A DNA stretch of 64,000 nucleotides. Origin: Myxococcota bacterium. Lineage in GTDB: Bacteria; Myxococcota_A; SURF-8. The notes beneath the pieces are model-generated. The model saw only the letters and a program-made list of their open reading frames with translations. It did no database searches and was not told where the DNA came from. Both the position numbers and the translations under genes were made by a program. Positions within the stretch are counted from its first letter, which is position 1, and each line of letters begins with the position of its first letter. Below, piece by piece: positions 10,543-43,605 of the stretch. Location: the NCBI GenBank assembly GCA_965140415.1, contig OZ223209.1, positions 1,792,001-1,856,000 on the forward strand, written 5' to 3'.

Positions 10543-11634
10543 GTGGATGAAGATTCTTCAAATCGAATCAACAAAGCGGAAAAAATGAGAATTACAAAGC
10601 GTAGTCAACAATTTGTAACCTTCCTGAAGCAGAACTTGACAACAAGCAAAGCGGTTGTCGTATTGCATGACAATCCGGACCCGGATACCTTGGCAGCCGG
10701 ACTTTGTTTAAAGAAGATCTTCGAGAACGCATATAAAGTGCCAACGACCATCGTTTACGGGGGAATCGTTGGGCGTGCGGAAAATCGAAAAATGGTTCAA
10801 GCTTGCGGAATACAAGCGCAGAAAGTTAGGAATTACAAGGAAGATAGCGACACCTTCGTTGCCGTGGTCGATACCCAGCCCGGTGTTGGAAACAACGTAT
10901 TGGAGCCGACGGCGAAGGTCGATGTCGTTGTCGATCATCACCCGCGTGTTCGATCTACCTGGAAAATGCCCTGGGTGGATGTTCGTCCCAAATACGGTGC
11001 AACGGCCACTATCGCGCTCGAATATCTGTTGGCTCACAATCTGGAACTGACCAAGCCTGAAGCTACCGCTTTATTGTATGCCTTGAAGAGTGAAACCCAG
11101 GATCTGGGTCGGGAAGCCTCCGTTGCAGATCGGCGCGCCTACTTCTATCTGTTTCCTAAAAGCGATTTCAACGTGTTATTTCAGATCGCCAATGCGGAAG
11201 TTACACGGGAATACTTTCAAGTGCTGGCTCGTGCGCTGGAAAACGCCAAAATACACAACAACGTTCTGGTTTCCGCCCTTGGGGAAATTGAAATCGCGGA
11301 TTATGTGGCGGAAGTGGCGGACATGCTGCTGCGCCTGAAGGGCGTCAACTGGACCTTCGTTCTCGGTCGCTTCAAAGGGGCGATGATTCTTTCCATGCGC
11401 ACTCTGCAACATGACAGTGATGCCGGGATGGTGATGAAGCAGGTGGTTGAAGGTCTTGGGACCGGTGGCGGTCACGAAATGATGGCCGGGGGGCGCATCG
11501 ATGAAATCAAGGAAGTCGATGGTGCCGAGCCCATGGAAGAGGAACTCTCCTCCCGGTTCCTGCGCGCGCTTAGAAAGCGTAGCAAGGGGCAGGAATTGCT
11601 GGATGGTCCACCTGCAAACAAGCCTCCGCAGTAA
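10543..11634 (+). CDS. DHH/DHHA1-family phosphoesterase
   Basis: HDNPDPD, VVDTQ, VDHH and GGGH motifs. The start may instead be ATG 10585. Confidence 0.9.
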   Translation: MDEDSSNRINKAEKMRITKRSQQFVTFLKQNLTTSKAVVVLHDNPDPDTLAAGLCLKKIFENAYKVPTTIVYGGIVGRAENRKMVQACGIQAQKVRNYKEDSDTFVAVVDTQPGVGNNVLEPTAKVDVVVDHHPRVRSTWKMPWVDVRPKYGATATIALEYLLAHNLELTKPEATALLYALKSETQDLGREASVADRRAYFYLFPKSDFNVLFQIANAEVTREYFQVLARALENAKIHNNVLVSALGEIEIADYVAEVADMLLRLKGVNWTFVLGRFKGAMILSMRTLQHDSDAGMVMKQVVEGLGTGGGHEMMAGGRIDEIKEVDGAEPMEEELSSRFLRALRKRSKGQELLDGPPANKPPQ

Positions 11635-11650
11635 GCGCATGAACTGTGAG

Positions 11651-14600
11651 ATGAAAGAAAAGCGAATGTTCACTGCTTTTGTGTATGTTTATAAATGTTG
11701 CAGATCGATTCCAACTAGCTTCCGCGAAACTACGATTCCTGCTTCAATCCTGTTGCTTCTTCTCAGTCTGTTTCTCGTTTCAGCTCCGGCGTGGGCGAAA
11801 ACACCTGTTTTCGATCCTGAAGTTGCCTATCCGGATGTGATCGAACCGTTACTGACCAACTCTTTAAATGATCTTTCCCCACAGCAACGCATTCAGTTGG
11901 CATCGCATTTCGCTCATACAGAACATCCGGCAATGGCTAGCTATCTTTTAGATGCGGTTGCAAACGGTAATGCAGATCCGCACCTGCTGGACATCCGTTT
12001 CCGGATTGCTGCCAGTGTGAAGCAGTACGATAGGGCATTGGGCTTAGCCAAAGAACTGATCGAAACGCTGAAACCATCAAAGCAGGTGTCGTCTGATCTA
12101 TGGGATGAGCGGTTAGCGTATGTGCTGAGCTGGCTGCATGAGTATTCCTACTGGCAACAAGGCCGGGAGTTGGCAGAGAAGGCAAGCAAGCGTTTCCCGG
12201 ACTGGCCCAAGCTCGCGGCGCAAGCGCTGCATTTTCAACTCGAAACCGAATCCTGGGAGGAAATCGGCGCATCGGTCCGGGAACGGGTGATAAACTGCCC
12301 GTCTTCCATCGGCTGCCTGGAGCTGGCACTTGTTTTGCGACAGACGGGACATCCCGAGCTGGCCCAGCTTGCCGTTATTCAAGCATGGCGGACTGCGCGC
12401 AGTTTTCAAGAGCAACTCGAGCTCTTCCGTTTTACGGATCGAAGCGATAGCCCGGCATTTTCCGAACGGATGCTTCAGCATCTGTTTCAACAAAAGCCGA
12501 CAGACGCCCAAATTGTCGCTTTAGCTAGTGCTGCCAAGCATTCTCGGTCATGGCTGGCTAAGCAATTGGATGGCAACGAAAAACAGCCTTCCGAACTCTT
12601 GTGGGCTAGGATCATGCTACTAATTCAAAGTGGAGACACCAAGCAGGCTGTGGCGCTATTGCCGCCGCTGGAAAAAACGCCGCTTTCTGCCGAGCAGCTG
12701 TATCGGGAATTATTTGTGGTCCGGCAATTACTGGATGCGCTTGGCGCGGGTGCGGAAAAGGCAGTCGTGCAAGCCCGTGAACACGAGCTGTTGCACATGT
12801 TTCCCCCAAAGACGCTCAGCCCGTTATGGCGGCTGCGTTTGCTCTCTCTGGTGCGTGAGGTTGCCGATCCCAAAACCAAGCAGGTGGTTTTGGCTGAAGT
12901 GCAGAAGCTTGCAGAACCAGATAATCTTTTCGTTCATGGTGCGGAACTGCGCATCCGGCAGCAGATGGGGCAGGGTGAAAGCGTGGCCAACCTGCTGCGG
13001 CAGGATATGGAAACGAATGCAAAGGATAATTTATCCGTTCGATCCGTCATGATTGAACAGGCCATGCAGATGAATCGCGATGGTTGTTTCGATTCAGACT
13101 CCCGCGCACGCGAAGCGCTGGCTGATGCGCTCTCGAAATTGGTTCCCAAGCAACTGACTCACTTTGTTCTGTTGCAAGCTCTTGAGTCTCTCACCGAGCT
13201 GGATAAGCGTTTCGAAGTCGCTGAATTGCTGCGTAAGATCGACACGGAAACCTGGTCTGTCGCTCAACGCCTGGAAATATCACACCTGATTCTTGCCAAT
13301 CGATTAAACCGCGAGGCGGGAAGTTTTCTGGAGTCGATTCAGGCTGCGGAAACTCGTGACCGGCTCGAGCAGATCGAGCAGTTGTTTTTGGCCGATCGTC
13401 ACGAGCAGGCCCAGGCGGTTTGCTTCGCTTTGGAAAACGATGCTGCGAATTCTTCTCTGGACCTTGCGCGAAGACTGCTTCCGCATTACTTGAATTATCG
13501 GTCCTCTTTGACCTTCCTGAGTCGTCAGCAACGTATCGGGTTGGATATCTTCACCCAACTGATCATCCGCAATTTGTTGCGGCACATCGATCAGGCCAAG
13601 GCTTCCGCCGATTGGGCAACCGTCATCGATATCGTCACGCGTATGATGCAAGAGCGGATAAAAGACGAGAAACGCAATTCCCTTCGCAAGGCGCTGTGGG
13701 AAGTGGATGTCGATCTCGATGCTGTCCTGTTCGATGTCTACCAGCGATTCCAGTCTTTCGGTCCGCAACCGTTGGATAGGCGTTTGACGATTCTGACCGC
13801 TCTGGTTAAGGCTCCGAATCCGGATTTCTTTTCCGTTGCCTGGCAGCATGTCGCCGAACTTAAGCTTTCCGCCAGTCAATTGCAGCATTTGATTCGGGCC
13901 TTGTCACTGCGACGGCAGACGGATATGCAGCCCCTGATCGACGAGTTGATGGAAAAGTGGCTCGATGCTTTGGACGAAGACACGAAAGATCATTTACTGG
14001 CCGCTCACGCTTTGCAGGCCAGTGCGGCGGCGATTGAGCAGCAAGGGGTCCAGCAATCCGAGATAGACCGGCTTCAATCGAAGCAGGAAGATATTGAGAT
14101 TTTGCAGGCTACCTTGGACCGGATGGATAAGCGTATTCAGGATGCCCGCAACGCGGTGGAACTCGTTCCTGCGCATGCAACGCTTGAACTGACGGCGAAG
14201 GCGGAAACGCACGGATTCAATACGGCGGAAGTCAATGAGCAGATGATGCACTATGACTGGTTATTGGAAGACTGTCTCTTGGACACGAAAGGTCTGGTGC
14301 AGCCGGTCAGTTTTTCGATGGAAGCGACGACCGACCGCTACGGTCAGATCCGCCAGGTGTCCTTCAGTAAAGCGCCCAGCGGCATCGCTGCCGAGCGGAC
14401 CTGTCTGCGCAATCGCTTGAAAGGTCTGACTCTGGCGAATGTTGAAGCGCCCTTCGGAGTCGGTTTCCTGATCGTGCGCATCGATCCTACCCGGAAAAGA
14501 GGGATGACCGTTCTTGCGCTGGATCATCAGGAACAGCAGATCAAGCTGACCCGGATGGTGATAACGCAACATCTGGATGACTTGAAATCGGAACGCTCCC

Positions 14601-14854
14601 GTCGCATGGATGCAATATTACAGCAACAGAAACTGGCGCGACGCTTGATGATGCTGGCCTATCGCAGCAGTTTCGATCCTGCAATTTATCGAACCGCCTC
14701 CTGGTGGTTTGACGTCATGGGAGACGATCCGGAATTCGCCCGAAAAATAAAGGGCGAAGTCAAATGGATTCAAGCGGCCAAGTTGTCGCCGGTGGCTTTG
14801 CTCGCGCTTGTGGTGGTCTGGCTGCTTCGGCGTCGGCGTAAGAAAAAACGGTAG
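11651..14854 (+). CDS. Large exported helical protein with a putative AgmX/PglI (TonB-C-like) domain and C-terminal membrane anchor
   Basis: Signal-peptide-like LLLLLSLFLVSAPAWA; all-alpha body; coiled coils flanking a Cys-pair alpha/beta segment; C-terminal TM followed by RRRRKKKR. Start uncertain. Confidence 0.6.
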   Translation: MKEKRMFTAFVYVYKCCRSIPTSFRETTIPASILLLLLSLFLVSAPAWAKTPVFDPEVAYPDVIEPLLTNSLNDLSPQQRIQLASHFAHTEHPAMASYLLDAVANGNADPHLLDIRFRIAASVKQYDRALGLAKELIETLKPSKQVSSDLWDERLAYVLSWLHEYSYWQQGRELAEKASKRFPDWPKLAAQALHFQLETESWEEIGASVRERVINCPSSIGCLELALVLRQTGHPELAQLAVIQAWRTARSFQEQLELFRFTDRSDSPAFSERMLQHLFQQKPTDAQIVALASAAKHSRSWLAKQLDGNEKQPSELLWARIMLLIQSGDTKQAVALLPPLEKTPLSAEQLYRELFVVRQLLDALGAGAEKAVVQAREHELLHMFPPKTLSPLWRLRLLSLVREVADPKTKQVVLAEVQKLAEPDNLFVHGAELRIRQQMGQGESVANLLRQDMETNAKDNLSVRSVMIEQAMQMNRDGCFDSDSRAREALADALSKLVPKQLTHFVLLQALESLTELDKRFEVAELLRKIDTETWSVAQRLEISHLILANRLNREAGSFLESIQAAETRDRLEQIEQLFLADRHEQAQAVCFALENDAANSSLDLARRLLPHYLNYRSSLTFLSRQQRIGLDIFTQLIIRNLLRHIDQAKASADWATVIDIVTRMMQERIKDEKRNSLRKALWEVDVDLDAVLFDVYQRFQSFGPQPLDRRLTILTALVKAPNPDFFSVAWQHVAELKLSASQLQHLIRALSLRRQTDMQPLIDELMEKWLDALDEDTKDHLLAAHALQASAAAIEQQGVQQSEIDRLQSKQEDIEILQATLDRMDKRIQDARNAVELVPAHATLELTAKAETHGFNTAEVNEQMMHYDWLLEDCLLDTKGLVQPVSFSMEATTDRYGQIRQVSFSKAPSGIAAERTCLRNRLKGLTLANVEAPFGVGFLIVRIDPTRKRGMTVLALDHQEQQIKLTRMVITQHLDDLKSERSRRMDAILQQQKLARRLMMLAYRSSFDPAIYRTASWWFDVMGDDPEFARKIKGEVKWIQAAKLSPVALLALVVVWLLRRRRKKKR

Positions 14855-14910: not shown

Positions 14911-16026
14911 ATGAAAGCCTTGGTTTTACCTAAATCAGGAGACTTGCTATCCCTGCATTTCGAATCCTATCCGGAGCCTGAACCGGGGCCGGGAGAAGTG
15001 ATCGTGCGCGTTGCCGCCGTCGGCCTGAATCCCGTCGACGCCAAGCTGGCGTTAAGTGGATGGCCGAGTTGGCGCTACCCGCATGTCCTCGGTCTGGACG
15101 TGGCTGGAATCGTCTGGTCGGTTGGCGAAGAGGTTCAAAACTGGCGCGAAGGTGACGCCGTCGTGTTTCACGGTGACTTGCGCCGCCCCGGCGGACTGGC
15201 CGAGCTTGTCTGTGCTCCGGCCCATGTGTTGGCTTCCATTCCTGAATCGGTGCCTTTTGCGGATGCCGCTGCCTTGCCCTGCGCCGGGCTGACCGCGTTT
15301 CACATTCTGTTCAGGCGCATGCACCTGCATCCCGGCCAGACCTTATTGGTACAGGGGGGCGCCGGCGGCGTGGGCGGGTTTGCCGTTCAACTGGCGGCTT
15401 ATCACAAGCTCCAGGTTGTTGCGACCTGTTCCGCTCGGAATTTCCCGACCGTACTGGATCTGGGCGCGATGCACGTGCTCGATTACGAATCGGAAGAATG
15501 GCCAGAAGACGTGATGGAACTGACGGACGATCGCGGGGTGGATGCCGCAATCGATATCGTCAGTTCGCAGAGCGCTGCACAAACGCTGGAACTATTGGCG
15601 TATGGCGGTCAACTGGCCTGCGTGGCCGGTATGCCGGATCTGGGAGCGGATGCTCCCTTTATGCGTGGAATTTCCATCCACGACATCGCCCTTGGCGGCG
15701 CTTATCTGTCGGGAGACTATCGTGCCCAGCAGGATCTGGCCAAGATGCTGGATGAACTGCTTTCGCTGGTGGCGCGGCATGAGATTCAACCGCGTGTCGA
15801 ACGTCTTGTGGAGTGGGATGAAGTGGGAGAAGCGTTAAAGGGTTTGCTCGATGGCCACACGCGCGGCAAGCTGGTTGCCAATATCGCGCAACTGGACAAA
15901 AAGCGTCTGCGAAATTCGAAACTCGTTTCGCTGGATGAAATCCCAACCGAATTGCGCGATCTCTCGGAACGACGTGAAAAAGGGAATCTGCGCGTTGCCC
16001 GCGTGGAAGAGGACAACGAGGAATAG
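14911..16026 (+). CDS. MDR-family (Zn-independent, quinone oxidoreductase-like) dehydrogenase
   Basis: VAAVGLNPVD, LGLDVAG, QGGAGGVG and GHTRGKLV motifs. Confidence 0.9.
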   Translation: MKALVLPKSGDLLSLHFESYPEPEPGPGEVIVRVAAVGLNPVDAKLALSGWPSWRYPHVLGLDVAGIVWSVGEEVQNWREGDAVVFHGDLRRPGGLAELVCAPAHVLASIPESVPFADAAALPCAGLTAFHILFRRMHLHPGQTLLVQGGAGGVGGFAVQLAAYHKLQVVATCSARNFPTVLDLGAMHVLDYESEEWPEDVMELTDDRGVDAAIDIVSSQSAAQTLELLAYGGQLACVAGMPDLGADAPFMRGISIHDIALGGAYLSGDYRAQQDLAKMLDELLSLVARHEIQPRVERLVEWDEVGEALKGLLDGHTRGKLVANIAQLDKKRLRNSKLVSLDEIPTELRDLSERREKGNLRVARVEEDNEE

Positions 16027-16038
16027 GCTGTTGTCCTT

Positions 16039-16692
16039 TTACAGGAATTCCAGAACCCGGTACAGGTCTTCTGGGGTTTCAACGTGAACGAACGCGCCTA
16101 GCGCGGAAAAGTCATCCTTATCCTGTAAACGGTCATCCACCGCGATGGCTTCGTGTCCTGTTACTCCGTGTTCCGCCAGAAAGTGTGCGACGTGCGCCGG
16201 TTTGCTGCGCTCCGGATGGCGCAAGGCCACGTTACTGACACCCACCATGCGCCCGTTCTGTTGTTGCACGTCGTTGGCCACGACTTTCACCCGGCCATCC
16301 GGCAATCCGGCCTGTTGTAAAACACGTTTGGCCACGCCGATAAATCCGCTGGAAAGGATCATCATCGCCACCGGCGAACCGTCCGCCAGTCGATGGGCAG
16401 CCACTTGCGGCAGGACTTCCAATGCGGCCTGTGTGGGTTGAATCGTATTCAGCACGTTCAGCACATCGTCTAACTTGCGTCCCGACCACAAGCCAGAGTC
16501 CTTATCGGCCCAGGTTTCGTAGTCGATCTTTCCTGCAAAAAACTGATCGTGGTAGGTTACGGCCTGATCCCAGGTGCCGAAGGCTTCATGAACCAGCCGC
16601 CAGGGGCTTTTTACCGGGGTAAGGGTGCCGTCCAGATCGAAGATAATGGCGCGGGCGGGGAAACCCCCGCCCGCCTTGGAGATGACTTGCAC
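16039..16692 (-). CDS. HAD-IB (phosphoserine-phosphatase-like) phosphatase
   Basis: Motif I FDLDGTL, motif II LSSG, a motif III Lys, and motif IV VDDRLQD. Confidence 0.85.
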   Translation of the reverse strand: MQVISKAGGGFPARAIIFDLDGTLTPVKSPWRLVHEAFGTWDQAVTYHDQFFAGKIDYETWADKDSGLWSGRKLDDVLNVLNTIQPTQAALEVLPQVAAHRLADGSPVAMMILSSGFIGVAKRVLQQAGLPDGRVKVVANDVQQQNGRMVGVSNVALRHPERSKPAHVAHFLAEHGVTGHEAIAVDDRLQDKDDFSALGAFVHVETPEDLYRVLEFL

Positions 16693-16695
16693 GAT

Positions 16696-17934
16696 TTAAC
16701 TTCCGAATTCTTTCTTTACGATGGCAAAGGCTTCATCGGCCACATCCAGCGCCTTGTCGATGTCTTCGTCGGTATGGGTGTAGCAGATAAACCAGTTATG
16801 GTGCGGATGGAACAGGACGCCGCGTGCCACGCATTCCTTCGCCCAAAGTTGCTGACGCAGGAAATTGGTTTCGTTGGAGAAGGTCATATAGGGAATGGTC
16901 GGAGGTCCGCTGACCGTAACCTGCAACCCGTTCTTTTCGGCGCGCTCCTTCAATCCGGCCTGAAGGCGTTTGCCTTTTTCCATCATGCTGTCCAGCACGT
17001 TCAGGTTTTCCATTTCGTCCAGTGTTGCCAGCGAGGCGGCCAGTTCAACGGCGCAGGTATAGTAGCTGCCGGTAAAGAAAACGTTACTGGCGGCGTTTTT
17101 CATTTCATCGGTTCCCACTGCCGCACTTAAGGAAAAGCCGTTGGCGATAGCCTTGGAATAACAGGCCAGATCCGGCTTGAACCCGAAGTATTCGCTGGAA
17201 CCGGCAAGATCCAGGCGGAAGCCGGCGCGCACATCGTCACAGATCAGTACGATGCCGTTGTCGTCGCAGATGCGGCGCACGTCCTGCCAGAATCCCGGAG
17301 CGGGCAGAATGGAGTTTCCAAACGCCGGATGATGGTAGGGTGTCAGGATGACGGCGGCGACTTCGCCTTCGTAGCGTTTGACCAGATCGTTCAACTGGTT
17401 GGCGTCGTTCCAGTTGAAATGGTGAATGGTGTTGATATCCTCTTCGATCAGGCCGCCGTGCCCCGGTGTGCTCCAGGCATGCGAACCGTGATAAGCGCCC
17501 TTGGCCATCAGCACGCGTTTGCGCGAAGTATACTCGCGAGCTACCAGAATGCTGAAGGTCGTGACGTCCGAGCCGTTACGGCCAAAGACCGCCCAGTCGG
17601 CGATTTTGATCGTCTTGACCAGTCGCTCTGCCAGTTCCACGGTACGCTCGGTCGGATGATTGAAACAGGTGCCCTGCTTGGCCTGTTCGGCAGCGGCTTT
17701 TTCGATCTTCTCATAATTATGGCCCAGGATAATCGGACCATATCCGCACAAAAAGTCGATGTAGTCGTTGCCGTCTACGTCCCAGTAGTGACCGTCTTTG
17801 CCGCGGTCGGCGAAATAGGGGAATGCTCCCGGAATGCCGATGGCCGGATTCTTGTGACCGGGAATGCCGCCCGGAATGACTTTGGCGGCCCGTTGGAACA
17901 TCTCCATCGATTTATCGAACTTATAGAGGCTCAT
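16696..17934 (-). CDS. Class III PLP aminotransferase, FumI (aminopentol aminotransferase)-like clade
   Basis: WDVDGNDYIDFLCGYGP, ADWAVFGRNGSD, AKGAYHG, DDVRAGFR, PLP Lys in YSKAIANG, FTGSYY, HPHHNWF. Confidence 0.85.
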   Translation of the reverse strand: MSLYKFDKSMEMFQRAAKVIPGGIPGHKNPAIGIPGAFPYFADRGKDGHYWDVDGNDYIDFLCGYGPIILGHNYEKIEKAAAEQAKQGTCFNHPTERTVELAERLVKTIKIADWAVFGRNGSDVTTFSILVAREYTSRKRVLMAKGAYHGSHAWSTPGHGGLIEEDINTIHHFNWNDANQLNDLVKRYEGEVAAVILTPYHHPAFGNSILPAPGFWQDVRRICDDNGIVLICDDVRAGFRLDLAGSSEYFGFKPDLACYSKAIANGFSLSAAVGTDEMKNAASNVFFTGSYYTCAVELAASLATLDEMENLNVLDSMMEKGKRLQAGLKERAEKNGLQVTVSGPPTIPYMTFSNETNFLRQQLWAKECVARGVLFHPHHNWFICYTHTDEDIDKALDVADEAFAIVKKEFGS

Positions 17935-17955
17935 GGCTCTCCTCCTTTACCTTCT

Positions 17956-18717
17956 CTATGCAAAGTATTTGTTGACGCGATCCATCAGCGCGGTGAAATG
18001 ATCCGCCAGCGGAATCAACCCGATGATGCGGACATCGCAGTTTCCCAATGCGGCGTAGGTATCCAGCTGGTTGAGCATCATACCGGCAGCGACCTCGATG
18101 TCCTTGATGATCACCGTGGAACTGGGATCTTTAACGGTATCGTTCACTGCGTAGAGATGTCCGTTATCCACCAGCACATGCGCCTCGGGACCGTCGCCCA
18201 ATACCTTGAACAGCAAAGTGCCGTTGGGTAGCATGTTCTTCGTTTTTTCCATGTGCGGATCGTGCTCCGCCAGTTCCCGTGCGCCTTCCAAACCGGCCAT
18301 CAGCATCATCTCAACCGCTGCACGGCGGAATTCGGGGCGCGCCATGTCCGCTTCGGTGGGTTTGAGATAACGCGGCATGATTTCGGTCAGGCGGGTGAAT
18401 TTCTTCAACACGCCGAATTTGGTAAGACCCCGATACGGAATCGGGATGACCTTTTCGCCGTCGAACATGCGGTTCAGTTTATCCGCCGAGGTAAAGAACA
18501 GACCGATATCCGCCTTTGCGGTTTTCTGGCGACTGGCTTTGACTTCGCCGTTTTTGAAGGTCAGTTCCACCTGCGGACCGCCGTTGACGACAAAACGGAT
18601 AACCGCGTTCATGTCGCGGGCGATTTCCTTGGCTTCGCTGTCGTAGCGCACCAGTTCTTGCAGTCGTGGTAGGGCTGCGTGCAGATTCAGATTGGCAAGA
18701 ATCGTTTCTTTGTTCAT
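17956..18717 (-). CDS. Tandem SCP2 (sterol carrier/lipid transfer)-like domain protein
   Basis: Two SCP2-like beta-strand/helix patterns (IRFVVNGGPQVELTFKNGEV...ADIGL; LLFKVLGDGPEAHVLVDNG...LDTYAALGNCDVRIIG); RBS GGAGG before ATG 18717. Confidence 0.65.
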   Translation of the reverse strand: MNKETILANLNLHAALPRLQELVRYDSEAKEIARDMNAVIRFVVNGGPQVELTFKNGEVKASRQKTAKADIGLFFTSADKLNRMFDGEKVIPIPYRGLTKFGVLKKFTRLTEIMPRYLKPTEADMARPEFRRAAVEMMLMAGLEGARELAEHDPHMEKTKNMLPNGTLLFKVLGDGPEAHVLVDNGHLYAVNDTVKDPSSTVIIKDIEVAAGMMLNQLDTYAALGNCDVRIIGLIPLADHFTALMDRVNKYFA

Positions 18718-18823
18718 TTCCTCCACCTCGATTTTACTTTCTAACGCAGGCGGTGTTTGCGCCGCCGCTCGGTGTCTGCCGCTGCCTGCACGATCGCCTG
18801 CAACGGCTGTTGGCTGTTTTCAT

Positions 18824-19963
18824 TCAGTCTTGTTCAACGCCTTCGTAATAGGTCAATGTCACGCCGCGTTTGGCGATACGCGGCAGAAACTCGTTCGGGT
18901 CCAGAATCGCTTCGGCGGCAAAGACTCCGCGTTTTTTCAATTCCCCGCGAGCCACCATCAAGGTTGCTTCCACGCAGGGCATACTGGTGATTTCCGCGAT
19001 GTGTCCCACTCCGGTATAGAAGTTATGGCGGTTTTTCCCTTTGTGCTTACCGTAGACATCGATGCGGAAGACCGACTTGTTGGCGGAATCGCCAACGACA
19101 AAGAGATTCATGACCGGTGCCAAGAGTTTCGCCCATACTTCGCGTTTGCGATGGCTGGTGGTCAGGTTCAGATCCCCGAACGTACGCGCGACCAACGCCG
19201 CCCAATTGGGCTTGACACCACCATGCAAGGTCACTTCCTTCAGCCCCTTGAGATTTCGAGGCAAGGAGACGGATTCTGCATGCCCGGTGTAATGTACCGC
19301 TTGCATTCCAACCGGCTCGGGAAACTCGACCATCTTGGTGCCGCGTCCGGTCTTGACCATCACTTCCTTGCCGTCCAGCCATTGCAGCGTTTCGCCTTCG
19401 AAAATGTGCATTACATGCTTGATGTTGGCCGGGCCGACTTCCTCATCCGATCCACCGGTCCATTGGACGTTGATCCGTTCCGGTGCATCCATGGACAAAT
19501 AGCCCTTTTTCGCCAGTACGTTGGTGATGCCCGGAGAGTTACCGATTCCGCTGATGATGGTCACTCCCGCCTGCTTGGCCTGTTCGAACAAGCCTTCCAC
19601 CGCCAGATAGCTGTCGAAATCATCGGCAATGGACACGTAATGCGTACCCGCTTCGATGCAGGCCTGTACGATTACGCGCTCGGTCAGGTAGAAGGGACCG
19701 ACGTAACCCATCATTACATCGGCCTTTTTCGCCAGATCGGTAAGCTCCTGGGGATTCATGGCGTCTATGGCGACGCCGCGGAATTTGTCTCCCATGGAAG
19801 TTGCCGTTTTTTGGGCATTTTCCAGGCTTAAGTCCGCAAGAATGACCTCGGTGACTTCCGGTTCGTTTGCCAGTTCACGCAAAGCCGGGACTGCCATTTT
19901 GGCGCAGCCGCCCAACACGCAAATTGTAAACGCCTTTTTCTCCACCTTTTTAGCCGCCATCAT
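18824..19963 (-). CDS. Saccharopine dehydrogenase-like NAD(P)-dependent oxidoreductase
   Basis: Rossmann VLGGCAKMA...LAD; VGPFY; HYVSIADD; GIGNSPGITN; GHAESVSLPR. Confidence 0.88.
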   Translation of the reverse strand: MMAAKKVEKKAFTICVLGGCAKMAVPALRELANEPEVTEVILADLSLENAQKTATSMGDKFRGVAIDAMNPQELTDLAKKADVMMGYVGPFYLTERVIVQACIEAGTHYVSIADDFDSYLAVEGLFEQAKQAGVTIISGIGNSPGITNVLAKKGYLSMDAPERINVQWTGGSDEEVGPANIKHVMHIFEGETLQWLDGKEVMVKTGRGTKMVEFPEPVGMQAVHYTGHAESVSLPRNLKGLKEVTLHGGVKPNWAALVARTFGDLNLTTSHRKREVWAKLLAPVMNLFVVGDSANKSVFRIDVYGKHKGKNRHNFYTGVGHIAEITSMPCVEATLMVARGELKKRGVFAAEAILDPNEFLPRIAKRGVTLTYYEGVEQD

Positions 19964-20229
19964 GCCTCCCGTATTCGATTTAAAAGTTGGCTTTTCGATG
20001 GACGATCAGAGTTGCTAGCAATGCAAGTCCACTTTATTACCTGTGTTTTACAAGTCAAGCAAAAGATCGAAATTCTCAAAAAGCGATGAATGTGATCCGG
20101 CATTCTGCTGTGGAATTTAGGTGACACAGCTTTACATGGTGAATAGAGATAGCCCCGTAGTGCATCTCGTGGTACAACTACAAGACGTTACAGAGCGAAA
20201 CGGGACTCTATGAAACAGGAACGGACATC

Positions 20230-20670
20230 ATGGAATACTATCCGGTAGTTCTTTGCGAAACCTACGAGCAGATTCAGCAGGCATTTGTGATTCGTCGGAA
20301 GGTTTTCGTGCTGGAACAGCAGATTTCAGAAGAATTGGAACGTGACGAAAAAGACGAAGAGGCCCAGCATTTTCTCGCCTTTGCAGATGATCGACCGGTC
20401 GCCACGGCGCGTCTGATCGCCGATCGTGATACGCTATGGCTCGGACGCATGGCCGTTTTGGAGGAGTATCGCCGCCAGGGTGTGGGGCGGGCGCTGATCA
20501 AGGCGATTCTTCAACATGTCCGCAAATCCGAAGCGAACGAAATCAAACTGCATTCGCAGGCCTCGGCCAGGCTGTTCTATGCCGCCATGGGATTTGTCGA
20601 AGAGGGAGCGCCCTATATCGAAGCGGGGATCGTCCACATCACCATGCGTCTGGACCTCCGCGATAGGTAA
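20230..20670 (+). CDS. GNAT N-acetyltransferase (ElaA/YjcF-like)
   Basis: IRRKVFVLEQ, GRMAVLEEYRRQGVG, FYAAMGF, EAGIVHITM. Confidence 0.9.
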   Translation: MEYYPVVLCETYEQIQQAFVIRRKVFVLEQQISEELERDEKDEEAQHFLAFADDRPVATARLIADRDTLWLGRMAVLEEYRRQGVGRALIKAILQHVRKSEANEIKLHSQASARLFYAAMGFVEEGAPYIEAGIVHITMRLDLRDR

Positions 20671-21205
20671 GAATGACTTTCGTCCGGTAGGGTTTGTTAT
20701 CTCCCTGCTGCCAGCCGATGAAATTCAATGTAAGCTGCAATACCCCTTTGTTTGCCACCAGCAGGATCGGGGATTGATCGGAAATCGAAAATCCGTTCAA
20801 GCGTAACTGCTCGGCGTAAGCCTGGTGAATGACAATCAAATCCTGCTGGAACCCATAGGCGACTTCCGTATCCTGTCCGTCGCGCAGGCTGTATAGCACG
20901 TTGTATCCGTCCGGCGGTGGCAGCAGATGATGAATGTAGGCCGCCGAATGCAGGAAATCGGAGACCAGCATCAAGCCGACCAGGGGAATGATCAGAAAAA
21001 GCATTCCGGCGCTGGCCGAAAGAGAACCCCAACGCCGGGCGGAATCTCCCCGAACGACCTTCAACGCGCCTCTGGTTTGTCCGCTCAGATCCGGAGCTAG
21101 GGTGCGACCTTTGAACAGTCCGACCAATCCCGTGACCGTCATCGCCACTCCAAGCAGGGCGGTTAAGCTGAAAAGGATTGGAAGTATATATAGATAGATC
21201 ACCAT
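20639..21205 (-). CDS. Hypothetical membrane protein
   Basis: Two hydrophobic segments and a soluble C-terminus; overlaps the end of the GNAT gene by about 30 nt. Confidence 0.55.
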   Translation of the reverse strand: MVIYLYILPILFSLTALLGVAMTVTGLVGLFKGRTLAPDLSGQTRGALKVVRGDSARRWGSLSASAGMLFLIIPLVGLMLVSDFLHSAAYIHHLLPPPDGYNVLYSLRDGQDTEVAYGFQQDLIVIHQAYAEQLRLNGFSISDQSPILLVANKGVLQLTLNFIGWQQGDNKPYRTKVILTYRGGPDAW

Positions 21206-21375: not shown

Positions 21376-23742
21376 TTACTCGCAGCCGCTATCGATTGCC
21401 TGTCCGGTCTGCTCCGTAACGGTAATGCCGCCGTCACTGGCTACGTGAATGGTCGCCACGACCTGATGCTGGCAATAGCTGCCGCTGAAGCTGCGATCGG
21501 CTGCGTAGACGGAAGCATCGGATACCTGCACCGTCAGGAAATAGTCTGCGGGTGCAAGCTGGGCGTTGTTTTCAATCACCACCTGGTATTCTCCCACGGC
21601 GGGCGTGTCGAGCGTCAACAGTTCGTGCTGGGGCGCATCCGGCGGCGTGATAAGCAGTGGATCGTCCAGGCGCAGTCCTGTTTCTCCCCAATCGGGAGCG
21701 TAAGCTGGACCGGGGCAGCCGCGAAGGGGACAGTCGCTGGCGGTATTGCGCAGGCTGCGACAGTTGGCCTTGTGGCAGTCGCTTTCGTTATCGGCGTTGT
21801 TTCGGGTGAACGTGCCATTCGGGCGAATCAGGTGCAGGTCAAGATCCGCCGCAGGATTCGACCAGGACAACGCGATTCCCAGTCGCGTTCCAAAGTGGGA
21901 AATGATCGGTTGAGTGACGCTATCGCTGTTGTTGCAGGTGTCGTTTGTGGAGCGCACCTGCAAAGCAACGGTATACGTGCTTCCCGGTAAACTGGTTGTG
22001 AACATCGGTGTGGCTTCATCGCTCCAGATGTCGCGGATGTCCTCGCCTTGGCGGTTTAGAATCGGTAATAGGGGAGTGCCGCCCGGACGATTTTGCAGGC
22101 TCCACTTGTAGGAATTGACGATGCCGTCGATGTCGCTGCTGGCAAGACCGTCGAGATACAACCGGCCACCCGGACGCAGGTAGAGGTCGCCACCCAGTGT
22201 GGCCTGGGAGCAGGGTTGCTCGGTGTCCGTCGTTAACGTAACGAAGGTTTCCTTTTGTTGCAGATCGTCCGACCACTGAATCAGCAGTTGTGTGTCGCTC
22301 GGATTGGGAACGATGCTCCCGATTCGAATGGTGGAACTCATGCCGGGATTGAGTACGGTATTGGTGAACGGCTGGTCGATCTGGAACACGGAGCCGAGCA
22401 CCTGGGCGTTAGTAATGGACATCCCGCGTTCGCCCGTGTTGATAACGGTTAAACTTACGACAGAAAGCGAACCAAAGGGAAAGCGCAAGCGTTCCGGCGA
22501 AGCCAGTCGGGCGACCGGTGGCACGGTCAGGTTCAGCGGAATATCGCGCCAGTTATTCTCGTCGTCATTGGAATGAAGGATAATGCGGTCGGCATAGATA
22601 CCGCTTTTGGAGGATCCACCGTAAACGGGTAACTCCACGCTTTCACCGGGGGCAAGTTGCAGCGGCAGAGCCGAAGGCAGCCAGAGCTGGAAAGCGCCGG
22701 GGCCGTAGCCGAAGAGATGGGCGCTGTCGATGTTCAGTGTTTCCGAGCCGTTGTTGCACAGTTGCGCCGCGTGAACGACATACTCGCCTGGAAATAACAT
22801 GCCAAACGCTAAATTGCGCCGATCCACCGACAGGCGCGGGCCTCCCGCTTGCATATCGGCCTCACAGGCAAAGGCGGCATCTGTATCGTAATCGCCATCG
22901 GCCAGACCTTCGCAGGCCGCATAGCCGTCGTGTTCCACGCATTGCTGGGGCGAGCAGTCCTGGTTGTTCCAGTTGTGCCCGTCGCAGTAAATCAACAGGT
23001 TTCCTTCGCAATAGCTGGCTTCTTCCCATTGACACTGTGGACCGCTTTCCTCTTCCATCTCCGCCGTGTCGGCTTCGAACGCATCGAGATCGGCGTCTTC
23101 ATCACCGTCCACATCGGGACCGATTTCATCCTCCAGTTCCACGAATTCCGGGTCGCCGTCGGGGATGTCTCCCACGCAGGCGGGGGGATTCTGTGAGGAA
23201 TCGCAAAAGCCGGGATCGCAGTTGTTGAAAATCCAGGTGCCGTCCCACTTGCAACTGATCAGCACATCATCGGAGCAGAAGGGCGTCATGTACGGGTCGC
23301 ACTCCGTGCCTTCTTCCGCGTCCATTTCCGGTTCTTCATCGCCGTCCGCCGGGGCGATGCATTCCGGTTCGGCACCCAGCCACTTGCAGGTTCCCGGAGA
23401 ACAATCCGTCACCTGCCAGTAATCGTTTTCTCCGCAATAATACAGCAGGCTGCCGAAGCAATACGGTGCATCGATAGAGGAGCAGCGCTCTCCCTCCGGT
23501 TCCGGGTCCATGTCTGCATCGGTTTCGATATCGGTTTCCGCATCGCCATCGGATGCGTTTGCTTCCTCTGTCTCCGCGTCGCCGTCCGGTATCGCGTCTC
23601 CGTCCGGGGATGTCTCGTCTAAATCGCCATTCTGATCGCCGTCGGTCGGTGGGTTTTGGTCCGACGATCCGCCGCAGGCGGAAATGCTGATCGAGAGGAT
23701 GAAAAGCAGCATGAAATAGCAAAACTGTCGGCAGAAATTCAT
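21376..23742 (-). CDS. Lipoprotein with DGD repeats, Cys-rich repeats, choice-of-anchor-D/Ig-like and PKD-like domains, and a DLDLH C-terminal domain
   Basis: Lipobox ISACGG; many DGD motifs; three C-x-G/D-x-x-L-x-x-C repeats; CNNGSETLNI; LDGLASSDIDGIVNSYKW; LSWSNPAADLDLHL. Confidence 0.8.
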   Translation of the reverse strand: MNFCRQFCYFMLLFILSISISACGGSSDQNPPTDGDQNGDLDETSPDGDAIPDGDAETEEANASDGDAETDIETDADMDPEPEGERCSSIDAPYCFGSLLYYCGENDYWQVTDCSPGTCKWLGAEPECIAPADGDEEPEMDAEEGTECDPYMTPFCSDDVLISCKWDGTWIFNNCDPGFCDSSQNPPACVGDIPDGDPEFVELEDEIGPDVDGDEDADLDAFEADTAEMEEESGPQCQWEEASYCEGNLLIYCDGHNWNNQDCSPQQCVEHDGYAACEGLADGDYDTDAAFACEADMQAGGPRLSVDRRNLAFGMLFPGEYVVHAAQLCNNGSETLNIDSAHLFGYGPGAFQLWLPSALPLQLAPGESVELPVYGGSSKSGIYADRIILHSNDDENNWRDIPLNLTVPPVARLASPERLRFPFGSLSVVSLTVINTGERGMSITNAQVLGSVFQIDQPFTNTVLNPGMSSTIRIGSIVPNPSDTQLLIQWSDDLQQKETFVTLTTDTEQPCSQATLGGDLYLRPGGRLYLDGLASSDIDGIVNSYKWSLQNRPGGTPLLPILNRQGEDIRDIWSDEATPMFTTSLPGSTYTVALQVRSTNDTCNNSDSVTQPIISHFGTRLGIALSWSNPAADLDLHLIRPNGTFTRNNADNESDCHKANCRSLRNTASDCPLRGCPGPAYAPDWGETGLRLDDPLLITPPDAPQHELLTLDTPAVGEYQVVIENNAQLAPADYFLTVQVSDASVYAADRSFSGSYCQHQVVATIHVASDGGITVTEQTGQAIDSGCE

Positions 23743-23827: not shown

Positions 23828-24964
23828 CTATTTTCCGCGCAGCGCCATCAGCGTTTCTTTCATCGAATAGCGCGGGCTGAAGTCCATGTCCCGTTTCGCG
23901 CGGGAGCCGTCTACATTGCAGATGAAGCGGGCGTAGTCCACTTCCGGCGCAGGGAAATCGGACAGTTTGAAGTCCCAGAGCTTGGCCATCAGGTATTTTA
24001 CCAATGGATGCGGAATGGAAATCGAACGTTTTCCAAGCGTTTTGATAATCGAAGACAGCGGTGCTCCGGTGGGACCGATGATGTTGTAAATACCTTTAAC
24101 ACCCGGTTTCATGGCCAGTACCAGGGCTTCGACGACGTCTTCCTCGTGGATGATCTGCAACACCGGGTCGAAGCCTAGTAATCTTGGGATCATGTCCATC
24201 CGCAAATAGTTGGTGATGCCGTTGCGCATGTTGGGACCGACAACATGCACCGGGCGCAGAATGACGGATTCGATCTCCGAATGCTTCCAGAAAAAGCTTT
24301 GACCCAGCATATCCAGTTCGATCAGGTCGCGAATGTGGGGGAATTTGTGACCCGCCAATAGCGGTGCATCTTCGGTCAGAAATACCGGGTTGTTCGGATG
24401 CGGACCGTAAATGTTGGCGCTGCTTAAAAGAATCATTTTGGGCACCTGGTAACGCTGGCAGTAGTCCAGGATTTTGGTGGTGCCCATGACGTTGAAATTC
24501 TGGTGTTCCTCTCCGAATTTTCGAGGATTGTGATGCATGCCCAGATGATAAACGGCCTGGAAATTATGGTTGCGGAACAGATCCTCGCAACGCTTCTTGC
24601 GGATGTCGATATGATGGACCACCACATCTTTGGGCAGGCCACGGAAGGGGCGCATGTCCACCCCATGCACTTCGGCGATGCGGTGCAGGCGCTTGGCCAG
24701 CAGTCGTCCCAGATTTCCAGAGATGCCGGTTACCAGTACTTTGGGTCGTGAAGTTCGCTTTTTGCTGGAGGGTTTCGGAGGTGCCGGTTTTTGGGCCACG
24801 GCTTTTTTCGTAGACGGCTTTGCGGCTCGTTTCCGTTTCGGCTTGCTCGTTGCTGCTGTTTCTGTTTGCGGTTGTTCTTCATTCAAACTCTGGATGACCG
24901 CTTGCGTACTGATCGTTCCTTTCGGCAGGCGATCCGTTTTCGAAGATTTCTTGGCTCTGGCCAT
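23828..24964 (-). CDS. Extended SDR, NAD-dependent epimerase/dehydratase
   Basis: VLVTGISGNLG, NVMGT, LSSANIYG, VILRP; Lys-rich N-terminal extension. Confidence 0.88.
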   Translation of the reverse strand: MARAKKSSKTDRLPKGTISTQAVIQSLNEEQPQTETAATSKPKRKRAAKPSTKKAVAQKPAPPKPSSKKRTSRPKVLVTGISGNLGRLLAKRLHRIAEVHGVDMRPFRGLPKDVVVHHIDIRKKRCEDLFRNHNFQAVYHLGMHHNPRKFGEEHQNFNVMGTTKILDYCQRYQVPKMILLSSANIYGPHPNNPVFLTEDAPLLAGHKFPHIRDLIELDMLGQSFFWKHSEIESVILRPVHVVGPNMRNGITNYLRMDMIPRLLGFDPVLQIIHEEDVVEALVLAMKPGVKGIYNIIGPTGAPLSSIIKTLGKRSISIPHPLVKYLMAKLWDFKLSDFPAPEVDYARFICNVDGSRAKRDMDFSPRYSMKETLMALRGK

Positions 24965-24985
24965 CGTTTCCACCCCGCTCTTTCG

Positions 24986-25852
24986 TTACCAGAAAATGGC
25001 CCGGCGCTTTTTCAACCCGTAGGTGAGCATCGACTGGATGACTTGCTGAACTTCCGAAACTTTTCGTTCGATGACGATATCTTCGTCGTTGGCGTCGCCC
25101 TCGAAATGCATGGGTTCGCCAAAGTAGATACGGTATTTGGTCGGAAGCGGTAGCCAGCCCAATACCGGCACCAGCAGTTGCGGCAGCATCGGTACGGCGG
25201 GCATGTTCATCAGTTTCGCCAGCGTCTTGAAGTTGCCGAAGGAGGGGAGTTGCTCTTCCGCTCCCACCACGGCGATCGGAACGATGGGGGTATTGGTTTC
25301 CAGCGCCAGGCGCATGAAGCCGGGACCGAATTTGACCAGCTTGTAGCGGTTCCAGAAAAACTTGTTGATACCGCGCGTTCCTTCCGGGAAAACAAGCAGT
25401 GCTTCGTCGCGTTCCAATAACGCTCGTGCGTTTTCCGGCGTTCCCAGAATCTGACCGACGCGCGTGAGGAAGGTGCTGACAAACGGCAGGGTGGGAACCC
25501 AGCGATCCACCATCGAGCGCAAGGCGCGGGGCGGATTGCCTTCCAGAATCAGCGACAGCCCGATCATCACGCCGTCTAAAGGAATTTGGCCGGAGTGGTT
25601 CGAAATCAGCAGTACGCGACCTTCCGGCACGTTCTCGATGCCGCTGATTTCCACCCGGAAATAGTATTTGTATATGGATGCGGCGATGGGCAGCGCCACC
25701 TTCACCCATTCCGGTGAAAAACCGAAATCGTCGAAGCCGAATTCGTTGAGCTTGGTGGGTAGTGCCTTGATCTGTTCGTCGTATTTGCCGCCAGGCGGCT
25801 CTTCCATCCATTCTCGCAATACGGTTTGCAGTTGCCTGAGCCTATCGGCCAC
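24986..25852 (-). CDS. Lysophospholipid acyltransferase (PlsC-like family)
   Basis: NHSGQIPLD (HxxxxD-type) and FPEGTRG motifs; likely GTG start at 25852 after GGAGG. Confidence 0.9.
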   Translation of the reverse strand: MADRLRQLQTVLREWMEEPPGGKYDEQIKALPTKLNEFGFDDFGFSPEWVKVALPIAASIYKYYFRVEISGIENVPEGRVLLISNHSGQIPLDGVMIGLSLILEGNPPRALRSMVDRWVPTLPFVSTFLTRVGQILGTPENARALLERDEALLVFPEGTRGINKFFWNRYKLVKFGPGFMRLALETNTPIVPIAVVGAEEQLPSFGNFKTLAKLMNMPAVPMLPQLLVPVLGWLPLPTKYRIYFGEPMHFEGDANDEDIVIERKVSEVQQVIQSMLTYGLKKRRAIFW

Positions 25853-26783: not shown

Positions 26784-26798
26784 TTGTCCGTCCCCCAA

Positions 26799-27632: not shown

Positions 27633-27652
27633 CGGACTGCCTCTTTGTGTCG

Positions 27653-42432: not shown

Positions 42433-42578
42433 GTTTCTCTCCTTTAAAAAGACATCGGAATGCTTGCCCGATATCGGCTGGTGGCTGCGAATGAATACAA
42501 CAAGCGCAGCCCTGCGCGAAAATTCGAAACCCCGTATATTCAAAGAAAGGTTGGGTTTCTTCGCGGTTGCTCGTAAAC

Positions 42579-43550: not shown

Positions 43551-43605
43551 ACCCGTTTTCCTATGCATCATTGCAACCCATTAGTACGGGTGCGTAACGA
43601 AACAA

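Follow-up and report, generated by a model that had tools for sequence, protein, structure and literature searches.

A tandem SCP2 protein and a FumI-like aminotransferase form a widespread gene pair that probably acts on sphingosine-like lipids: a Myxococcota variant with a phosphatase and an oxidoreductase

The window, a 64,000-nucleotide stretch of the genome of a Myxococcota bacterium (contig OZ223209.1, positions 1,792,001 to 1,856,000), carries at 16039-19963 a row of four co-oriented minus-strand genes, which encode an oxidoreductase of the saccharopine dehydrogenase family (SDH-like), a protein predicted to hold two SCP2 domains in tandem (SCP2a), a class-III aminotransferase (AT) and a HAD-IB phosphatase (HAD). 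The initial annotation of this DNA had described the four genes as tightly packed, with gaps of about 100, 21 and 3 nt, and this is how they lie: the intergenic distances are 106 nt between SDH-like and SCP2a, 21 nt between SCP2a and AT, and 3 nt between AT and HAD. The open reading frames (ORFs) are long and have strong family matches and are therefore not chance occurrences. Since the window also contains lepA and gyrB, it is chromosomal. From the first gene of the row onwards, its features are as follows.

18824-19963, minus strand: SDH-like, a saccharopine-dehydrogenase-family NAD(P) oxidoreductase of 379 aa (378 aa in the protein collection, where the start lies one codon later), first in the row.
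18718-18823, minus strand: the 106-nt spacer between SDH-like and SCP2a, in which GGAGG precedes the ATG at 18717 by 5 nt and a short GC stem occurs that no run of T follows.
17956-18726, minus strand: the ORF of SCP2a, a predicted tandem SCP2-fold protein, 256 aa from a GTG; the likely gene is 17956-18717, 253 aa from an ATG.
16696-17934, minus strand: AT, a FumI-like class-III, pyridoxal phosphate (PLP)-dependent aminotransferase of 412 aa.
16039-16692, minus strand: HAD, a HAD-IB phosphatase of 217 aa with a predicted phosphoserine-phosphatase-like fold, starting 3 nt past the AT stop codon.

The true start of SCP2a is most likely the ATG at 18717, because the protein collection holds the 253-aa form and the GGAGG lies 5 nt upstream of this codon.

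AT matches Pfam Aminotran_3 (156 bits), and its best match among structures of the PDB is FumI (6hbs, “aminopentol aminotransferase”) with 344.9 bits (E 6.4e-102), followed by HemL with 172.3 bits; among the top 60 PDB matches, none comes near the FumI score. The full-length alignment of AT and FumI has 154 identical residues in 403 columns (about 38%, by hand count), and the motifs DDVRAGFR, ADWAxFxxNGSD, AKGAYHG, TGS and HPxHNxF, which the initial annotation had matched to FumI, are all present and align with identical or matching residues of 6hbs. All 30 aligned ATs, without variation, have the PLP-site residues AT-K261 (Lys261), AT-D233, N120-G121-x-D123 and Y148-H149. As far as sequence comparison can tell, AT is thus FumI-like and not a HemL, as had been proposed. 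An assignment to HemL was rejected, since AT scores 230 bits on the TIGR00713 equivalog against a cutoff of 527, the HemLs of the PDB reach half the FumI score, and E. coli HemL is a remote outgroup in the AT tree (a quick IQ-TREE run with LG+G4 and SH-aLRT support on 74 ATs, rooted on E. coli HemL, with FumI itself not among them). GntE of guanitoxin biosynthesis was likewise rejected: it is the best NCBIfam match, yet at 272 bits against a cutoff of 525, and the best NCBIfam matches (GntE and HemL-like models) all remain under their cutoffs.

FumI of Sphingopyxis sp. MTA144 (PDB 6hbs and 6hbv) converts a 2-amino-3-hydroxy long-chain polyol and pyruvate, its preferred acceptor, into the 2-ketone and alanine, with a Km of 1.1 μM (PMC3136697). 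Because a 2-amino-3-hydroxy substrate becomes a 2-ketone, the product is an α-hydroxy-ketone (ketol). AT resembles FumI in its class-III PLP fold, in scoring 170 bits higher against it than against HemL, the next solved structure, and in the five motifs; it differs in context, in that no carboxylesterase gene adjoins the cassette in the window. Seven further FumI-like ATs on plasmids or chromids (all those examined) are about 38-41% identical and fall outside the SCP2-linked clades of the AT tree; they have no SCP2 partner alongside, and at the positions predicted to contact SCP2 they differ from the SCP2-linked ATs.

SCP2a matches the Pfam SCP2 family (PF02036) with 30.1 bits against a cutoff of 21.3, and does so over residues 23-90 only. 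Its AlphaFold (AF2) model, with a predicted local distance difference test score (pLDDT) of 90.5 and a predicted template-modelling score (pTM) of 0.87, contains the helix-sheet (α/β) pattern twice. The top Foldseek matches of the model are SCP2 structures, many of them at probability 1.00 (E 3e-5 to 1e-3 over about 110 columns, target-normalized template-modelling score, TM, of 0.5-0.67); they include AF1534, UbiJ-SCP2 (6h6p, 6h6n, 6h6o), the C-terminal domain of an alkylsulfatase, and human SCP2. Similarly, a family-level comparison of the N-terminal with the C-terminal half by hhalign gives a probability of 97.1% (E 6.5e-11, 108 columns). On the strength of the model and these comparisons, SCP2a is predicted to be a genuine tandem SCP2 fold, and the suggestion to this effect in the initial annotation holds. 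A sequence search of the PDB with SCP2a returned chance-level matches only (E about 0.1). The family is rare, with 14 proteins found in a search of 5.8 billion clusters, and no homologue is present in the plasmid collection.

Judging by its fold, SCP2a may bind a hydrophobic ligand. Residues 73-120 of the N-terminal domain hold 12 of the 18 invariant residues of the family (L73, F75, S77, M84, P92, P94, G97, F107, L110, T111, L118 and P120). This stretch lies outside the predicted AT interface described below and may act as a ligand gate or as a site for a second partner. UbiJ/UbiT-type SCP2 proteins present isoprenoid lipids to soluble enzymes, and SCP2a recalls them both through the UbiJ-SCP2 structures among its best fold matches and as an SCP2 protein that would serve a soluble enzyme. 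SCP2a, however, has two copies of the domain in tandem and a PLP aminotransferase as its predicted partner, and there is no relationship at the level of sequence.

HAD meets the HAD-IB model TIGR01488 with 48.8 bits against a cutoff of 45, and its motif I, FDLDGT (HAD-D19, HAD-D21, HAD-T23), is invariant in 9 of 9 sequences. The best Foldseek match of its AF2 model (pLDDT 92.7) is the phosphoserine phosphatase of M. jannaschii, 1f5s (E 1.1e-12, TM 0.67-0.69), with 1l7o and 1l7p scoring similarly (E about 1e-12, TM 0.67-0.71) and SerB2, SerB, human PSPH and ThrH following. The modelled fold is therefore of the phosphoserine-phosphatase type, and the identification as a HAD-IB phosphatase made in the initial annotation stands. 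A true SerB was considered and rejected (TIGR00338, 22.7 bits against a cutoff of 144.15); TIGR01491 gives 64.3 bits against 151.9, and a PDB sequence search yields no match at E 0.01. Besides the window protein, the HAD family comprises 7 other close homologues at 54-59% identity, the next relative standing at 27%; it is as rare as the cassette.

The SDH-like protein matches both Pfam Sacchrp_dh_NADP (PF03435, 50.7 bits) and Sacchrp_dh_C (PF16653, 38.3 bits) over their cutoffs. A profile built from 37 homologues finds 4rl6 (3.4e-20), 4ina, carboxyspermidine dehydrogenase 8deb (6.8e-16) and saccharopine reductase 1e5l in the PDB, in a set of matches (structural-genomics “saccharopine dehydrogenases” and others) that spans 1e-10 to 1e-20. 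Carboxynorspermidine synthase was rejected as an identity (NF043000 equivalog, 28.7 bits against a cutoff of 800). Homologues on plasmids are only about 29% identical, and the ESM Atlas returned generic family names only for the SDH-like and HAD proteins. The longest contigs listed for SDH and for HAD homologues coincide in size at 2,694,912 bp (L002's own contig, see below), 18,386, 11,754 and 6,922 bp, a hint that the two genes may co-reside on several contigs. Among the four genes of the row, the SDH-like one has the least certain role, and its link to the module is weak.

A genome scan with an alignment of the SCP2a family yielded 70 loci (numbered L001 onwards), to which the window proteins were then matched by tblastn. 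Judging from the titles of their records, these loci are spread over nine phyla: Myxococcota, Spirochaetota (Leptospira-like metagenome-assembled genomes included), Bacteroidota, Thermodesulfobacteriota, Hydrogenedentota, Nitrospirota, Actinomycetota, Planctomycetota and Bacillota. Immediately after SCP2a, and in the same orientation, comes AT in 67 of the 70; of the three loci that lack it, L062 and L068 are contig ends and L027 is a real absence. The usual layout continues beyond the pair: SCP2a and AT are followed by the N-part (TK-N) and the C-part (TK-C) of a split transketolase and by a second, more distant tandem-SCP2 protein (SCP2b). By tblastn, TK-N is found in 57/70 loci, TK-C in 54/70 and SCP2b in 52/70. 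Both transketolase parts occur in 53 loci, and 51 of these have SCP2b after them (the exceptions, L036 and L041, end at a contig edge); only L046 has SCP2b without a transketolase. The conserved unit is SCP2a plus AT, normally joined to the split transketolase and SCP2b, partners that the initial annotation had not anticipated. The initial annotation had treated the four genes of the window as one cassette, and its co-conservation is not borne out: SDH-like has a match in a single locus (L002, 70% identity), and HAD in two, downstream of AT in each (L001, 58%; L002, 57%). Cultured carriers of the operon include Draconibacterium aestuarii Z1-6 and Desulfatibacillum alkenivorans DSM 16219.

A minority of loci share further neighbours. 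A TetR regulator occurs in 20/70 loci by tblastn (including L002, where it lies inside the cassette), a Crp-type regulator in 10/70 and a VOC (glyoxalase-fold) protein in 8/70 by ORF clustering, and an aldehyde dehydrogenase of the ALDH3 type in 6/70; MFS, SNF and APC transporters are also among the neighbours. A true alanine dehydrogenase adjoins the pair in three of the four loci scored (L025, L046 and L039; 505-530 bits against an NCBIfam cutoff of 392), and L030 has the same layout as L025. In a Pfam survey that covered 130 of 252 unclassified neighbour ORFs, of up to 620 aa, no further recurrent lipid enzyme was found in the 130, only scattered acyl-CoA synthetase-like, acyl-CoA dehydrogenase and SRPBCC genes.

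Some loci carry features that we record in their own right. In L012, and probably in L026 and L053, the neighbour resembling alanine dehydrogenase is PntA of a pntAA-pntAB-pntB transhydrogenase operon, sequence clustering having merged PntA with alanine dehydrogenase. In five Leptospira-like loci (L038, L040, L052, L057 and L063), a GpgS-like glycosyltransferase (91.9 bits on NF010496, below cutoff), a 96-aa ORF and an MBL-fold protein lie upstream of SCP2a, and a VOC/glyoxalase-fold protein lies downstream of the operon. In two transketolase-less loci of Spirochaetota (L033 4432-5853 and L044 12322-13743), AT is followed by a 473-aa protein without a Pfam match and then by GlmS; this 473-aa protein may be another alternative partner of the SCP2a-AT pair.

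Structure prediction places the products of the conserved pair in contact. The model of the SCP2a-AT complex reaches an ipSAE score of 0.61 (runs at 0.64, 0.61 and 0.60), against 0.00 for the best of three controls; 116 of 157 solved complexes also pass this mark, as do 2 of 215 mismatched pairs, figures that are only a rough guide here because the alignments were custom-made. At least 88% of the contacts recur between runs, and the pLDDT of the partner is at least 88. On the SCP2a side, the predicted interface lies in the C-terminal domain (residues 155-159, 198-200, 219-236, 243 and 246), and SCP2a-D219 and SCP2a-G233, the only invariant residues of that domain, are both part of it. On the AT side it involves residues 10-40, 158-167, 205, 356-362 and 378, and several of the contact residues are strongly conserved in SCP2-linked ATs (F13, Q362 and H378 in 100%, P30 in 98%, P35 in 97%, F205 in 95% and H159 in 94%). 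When the SCP2-linked ATs are compared with the seven SCP2-less FumI-like ATs, the two consensus sequences agree at 5 of 26 interface positions versus 194 of 386 positions elsewhere (Fisher p = 0.002). The models and this pattern of conservation support a binding of SCP2a to AT, short of proof.

The window represents a distinct variant of this operon. Its AT falls in a Myxococcota clade of nine (SH-aLRT support 100) and is 59-70% identical to the ATs of the Myxococcota loci, 59-64% to those from loci that bear a transketolase. Six of the nine members (L003-L007 and L010) are ordered TK-N, TK-C, SCP2b, SCP2a, AT. The other three (the window, L001 and L002) are without transketolase and SCP2b at the locus, and exactly these three carry HAD after AT. 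As this transketolase-less state is nested within a transketolase-bearing clade, it is derived, and by sequence the window cassette is a lineage-specific, derived variant of the widespread operon: it shares with that operon, itself unnamed, the clade and the placement of SCP2a directly before AT, but has HAD and SDH-like instead of the transketolase and SCP2b. In the 64-kb window, tblastn found no homologue of TK-N, TK-C, SCP2b (two query sets for these three), TetR, alanine dehydrogenase or aldehyde dehydrogenase, and the sole match of the SCP2b queries was SCP2a itself. In L002, a TetR gene that the window lacks sits where the window has the 106-nt spacer between SDH-like and SCP2a. The AT tree places L002 nearer to L003-L006 (support 98) than to the window, whereas gene order (SDH-like, GNAT acetyltransferase, a 188-aa protein and HAD) groups L002 with the window.

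The usual partners of the pair offer clues to its chemistry. We compared 51 transketolases (50 SCP2-linked ones and that of Variovorax, see below), with E. coli numbering that the sequence confirmed. They keep the thiamine pyrophosphate (TPP), metal and catalytic residues: H26 in 50/51, H66 in 51/51, H100 in 50/51, and D155, N185, E411 and H473 in 51/51. Two other positions have changed, D469 to Ala in 49/51 and R358 to Ala in 41/51. In one study, the engineered variants D469A and D469T improve the use of propionaldehyde, and D469 variants take linear aliphatic aldehydes (PMC3657141). Transamination would turn a sphingoid base into a 1,3-dihydroxy-2-ketone, a molecule shaped like the donor substrate of a transketolase. 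Such a ketol product fits the usual partners of AT, since the split transketolase keeps its catalytic residues and has the D469 and R358 changes. Ala469 is enriched in the operon transketolases as judged by alignment, and not unique to them.

Other FumI-like ATs also adjoin TPP enzymes that cleave C-C bonds, or a ketose-type kinase with a class II aldolase. In Variovorax paradoxus VAI-C (L072, CP063167.1 538409-555611, on a large replicon), AT is followed by a GntR regulator, a split transketolase, an amidase and a gene of the penicillin acylase family and has no SCP2 partner, a layout that suggests deacylation of an N-acyl amine, then transamination, then TPP-dependent cleavage. On plasmids of Agrobacterium sp. 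T29 and Shinella (L074 and L075), AT is flanked by an ABC binding protein on one side and a class-IV aminotransferase on the other, with a fused α-ketoacid dehydrogenase E1 α/β adjacent, and a four-carbon acid sugar kinase, a class II aldolase and an acyl-CoA dehydrogenase are found on the other strand. The neighbours of the Novosphingobium AT are a class II aldolase, a carbohydrate kinase, TetR, an aldehyde dehydrogenase and a P450. Beside the FumI-like ATs of Streptomyces, Burkholderia and a second Variovorax replicon, no C-C-cleaving TPP or ketose-type enzyme was found.

Three sets of characterized systems combine similar activities. Taurine catabolism uses a taurine:pyruvate aminotransferase, an alanine dehydrogenase that recycles pyruvate, and the TPP enzyme Xsc, which acts on the carbonyl product; the operon resembles it in its pyruvate-dependent transaminase, alanine dehydrogenase (3 loci) and TPP enzymes (57/70), but the enzymes belong to other subfamilies, and the taurine system handles a small polar substrate and has no carrier protein. 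SerA-SerC-SerB and NtdC-NtdA-NtdB are precedents for a dehydrogenase, an aminotransferase and a HAD phosphatase acting together. The window shares with them this triad, including an NAD(P) oxidoreductase and a HAD whose model is phosphoserine-phosphatase-like, but its oxidoreductase and aminotransferase families differ, its HAD scores below the cutoff of the SerB equivalog, and an SCP2 carrier is inserted. The pairing around a ketol is also that of engineered transketolase-transaminase cascades to 2-amino-1,3-diols. A natural transketolase-then-aminotransferase route is found in anisomycin biosynthesis (AniP, AniQ and AniN; PMC11387542). Like the operon, it has a transketolase-type enzyme and an aminotransferase around a ketol with a dehydrogenase alongside, and in both the phosphate- and acceptor-site residues are altered; it differs in belonging to a Streptomyces secondary-metabolite cluster without SCP2 proteins.

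The surroundings of the row in the window contain the following features.

20031-20058, minus strand: a weak promoter-like site upstream of the SDH-like gene (TTGACT, 16-nt spacer, TAAAGT; 9/12 matches).
20230-20670, plus strand: a GNAT acetyltransferase (Pfam Acetyltransf_10, 80 bits), diverging from the SDH-like gene.
20639-21205, minus strand: a 188-aa protein with no Pfam family match.
14911-16026, plus strand: an MDR-type quinone oxidoreductase, converging on the HAD gene.
23828-24973, minus strand: a protein of the NAD-dependent epimerase/3-beta-HSD family.
24986-25903, minus strand: a PlsC-type acyltransferase.
25842-26798, minus strand: a polysaccharide deacetylase.
26799-28016, minus strand: a GT2 glycosyltransferase.
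27653-28948, minus strand: a flavin amine-oxidase/desaturase-like protein.

Promoter-like sites in the region number 3 versus 2.6 expected from shuffled sequence, and terminator-like signals 4 versus 6.1; neither count is above chance. The flanking MDR-type quinone oxidoreductase and GNAT genes lie outside the row. Across the 70 loci, the GNAT and 188-aa proteins have tblastn matches in L002 only (52% and 35% identity, respectively), where their relative orientation is kept; we treat both as context and do not claim them for the module. The last five genes listed form a co-oriented row of their own (23828-28948, minus strand), about 4 kb from the cassette, which looks like a separate lipid- or glycolipid-modifying cluster. 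Between the two rows, 21376-23742 (minus strand) encodes a 788-aa predicted lipoprotein-like protein with a very acidic, Asp-Gly-Asp-rich N-terminal half, repeated Cys-containing modules and a weak Ig-like match only. On the other side, a DHH/DHHA1 phosphoesterase ORF (10543-11634, plus strand) overlaps by 134 nt the longest reading of 11501-14854 (plus strand), a 1117-aa ORF without a Pfam match whose real start is probably further downstream. Further away, 45388-48378 (minus strand) encodes a 996-aa protein with a spermine/spermidine-synthase domain in its middle, and 41494-43571 (minus strand) holds genes for an ornithine/aspartate carbamoyltransferase and a member of the amino-acid-kinase family; they relate to polyamines or arginine and have no connection to the cassette.

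The firmest conclusion concerns the core pair: SCP2a and AT are a conserved, probably physically coupled unit, the substrate of which would be a hydrophobic amine that yields a ketol when its amino group becomes a keto group. The pair probably deaminates sphingosine-like lipids or aminates their precursors. A more specific reading, which we put forward tentatively as a possible one, is a carrier-assisted, pyruvate-linked transamination, catabolic in direction, that would turn a hydrophobic vicinal amino alcohol into an α-hydroxy-ketone, with a phosphatase and a reductase taking the place of transketolase cleavage in the window. SCP2a would bind a long-chain vicinal amino alcohol of low solubility, for example a sphingoid or 1-deoxysphingoid base, and hand it to the docked AT, which would move the 2-amino group to pyruvate, giving alanine and the ketol. 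In most lineages, cleavage of the C2-C3 bond of the ketol by the split transketolase, with SCP2b as its partner, would follow and release a fatty aldehyde. In the window clade, HAD may free the base from its 1-phosphate, since a base-1-phosphate would be an analogue of phosphoserine, and the SDH-like NAD(P) enzyme may act on the ketol or on its imine or secondary amine. That the substrate is a lipid, that the pathway is catabolic, that HAD acts before AT and AT before SDH-like, and that the SDH-like protein takes part at all are inferences. We prefer the catabolic direction because FumI, the characterized relative, is catabolic and because the neighbours met more often are TetR and Crp regulators, transporters, alanine dehydrogenase and aldehyde dehydrogenase. 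It is somewhat doubtful, at the widest, that SCP2a-AT and transketolase-SCP2b make up a new and widespread carrier-assisted pathway that would degrade or build sphingoid-type 2-amino-1,3-diols without serine palmitoyltransferase or sphingosine-1-phosphate lyase, in which a transketolase specialized for non-hydroxylated aldehydes would cut or form the C2-C3 bond and the window clade would have swapped this transketolase arm for a phosphate-dependent arm of HAD and SDH-like.

Several observations weigh against the catabolic, sphingoid-type reading, and others do so by favouring the alternatives considered below. Nothing in the sequence names the ligand, and most other neighbours are heterogeneous across loci. 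Enzymes with proven deamination of hydrolysed fumonisin are 62-74% identical to FumI (PMC9858248), and the window AT, at about 38%, lies below the identity range of these transaminases (at least 62%). An early count of alanine dehydrogenase in seven loci was rejected, as at least one and probably three of the seven matches are PntA (the L012 neighbour is PntA, and L026 and L053 have PntB adjacent). So was the idea that Ala469 is unique to the operon transketolases: among the 150 nearest 50%-cluster representatives, 16 have Ala and 75 have Asp. Class-III aminotransferases are dimers, and the model of the complex contains only one AT chain, so that part of the predicted surface could be the AT dimer interface. 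In the window itself, no transketolase lies within 64 kb to process the ketol.

The same genes could also run in the opposite direction, towards the biosynthesis of an amino lipid, which we consider unlikely. Here SDH-like would oxidize a phosphorylated lipid alcohol to the ketone, AT would aminate it from alanine and HAD would remove the phosphate; in the transketolase loci, a 1,3-dihydroxy-2-ketone built by the transketolase from a fatty aldehyde would be converted by AT to a 2-amino-1,3-diol without serine palmitoyltransferase. The gene order SDH-like, (SCP2a), AT, HAD follows the dehydrogenase, aminotransferase, phosphatase logic of the serine pathway, to which the phosphoserine-phosphatase-like fold of HAD adds, and the presence of HAD only where the transketolase is absent (3/3 versus 0/6 in the clade) fits two alternative supplies of the keto intermediate. 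The anisomycin route introduced above proceeds in this direction, a D469A-type change favours ketol synthesis from aliphatic aldehydes (PMC3657141), and a SAM-dependent methyltransferase just upstream in 4/70 loci and a GpgS-like glycosyltransferase just upstream in 5/70 suggest biosynthesis as well. However, FumI, the closest characterized AT, is catabolic (PMC3136697), and such tailoring enzymes are less common among the neighbours than regulators of the TetR and Crp types, uptake-type transporters, alanine dehydrogenase and aldehyde dehydrogenase. The neighbour survey found no consistently adjacent acyltransferase or ceramide-synthase-like gene, SDH-like is absent from 69 of the 70 loci, and its solved relatives reduce imines and are not alcohol oxidizers.

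Quite unlikely, in our view, is a narrower account in which only SCP2a and AT (perhaps with HAD) are a functional unit here, SDH-like, GNAT and the rest being bystanders brought in by rearrangement and the keto product being handled by a transketolase or some other enzyme encoded elsewhere in the genome. The single occurrence of SDH-like beside the pair speaks for it, as does the size of a family that is not dedicated to the module (323 matches or more, 13 of them at at least 66% identity); in L001, a methyltransferase and a 192-aa protein occupy the SDH position, the 106-nt spacer with its small stem parts SDH-like from SCP2a, and the SCP2a-AT pairs without an adjacent transketolase in L033, L044, L046, L056 and L060 each have other neighbours. 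Against it, the SDH-like gene of L002 overlaps by 4 nt a TetR gene whose cluster adjoins the operon in 19 loci, and the SDH and HAD homologues on equal-sized contigs hint at repeated co-residence. Improbable still more is a substrate that is not of the sphingoid type, namely another amine that yields a ketol or acyloin, such as an amino-polyol or an amino alcohol that is aromatic or of medium chain length, with the SCP2-fold proteins being structural or regulatory. Such a substrate would suit the SCP2-less settings of proteobacterial FumI-like ATs (amidase and penicillin acylase in Variovorax; P450, kinase and aldolase in Novosphingobium; phytanoyl-CoA dioxygenases in Burkholderia) and the aldehyde dehydrogenase neighbour, which is closest to the benzaldehyde dehydrogenase MdlD (412 bits against a cutoff of 550). 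It would also suit the operon transketolases, which keep S385, H461 and R520 of the phosphate site, three of the four residues (with R358) that bind substrate phosphate in transketolase (PMC11387542). The four SCP2 domains of a typical operon suggest instead that the cargo is hydrophobic, the structures matched by the fold are lipid-binding domains of SCP2, UbiJ and alkylsulfatase, and some neighbours are acyl-CoA synthetase-like or acyl-CoA dehydrogenase genes.

The initial annotation knew of no description of its gene combination, and the open full-text literature, with subscription journals lying outside the search, agrees: we found no account of an operon of SCP2, aminotransferase and transketolase, of a tandem-SCP2 bacterial family, or of a transaminase-based catabolism of sphingoid bases. 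The operon is apparently undescribed. We also know of no earlier case of an SCP2 carrier dedicated to a PLP enzyme, so that SCP2a would be the first if the reading is true.

How bacteria turn over free sphingoid bases and related amino lipids has been little charted; the known routes for free sphingoid bases in bacteria use a kinase and a lyase, or oxidases. If the catabolic, carrier-assisted reading is true, it would add a transaminase-first route shared by nine or more phyla, with Leptospira-like spirochaetes, marine Bacteroidota and sulfate reducers among its users, and nature would be using the transketolase-transaminase pairing that chemists have built artificially for amino-diols. Distant FumI relatives with a built-in solubilizing partner would be candidate enzymes for the detoxification of mycotoxins that are sphinganine analogues. 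Should the reading be wrong, the SCP2a-AT pair is still a conserved two-protein unit that has gone unannotated, with cultured carriers at hand.

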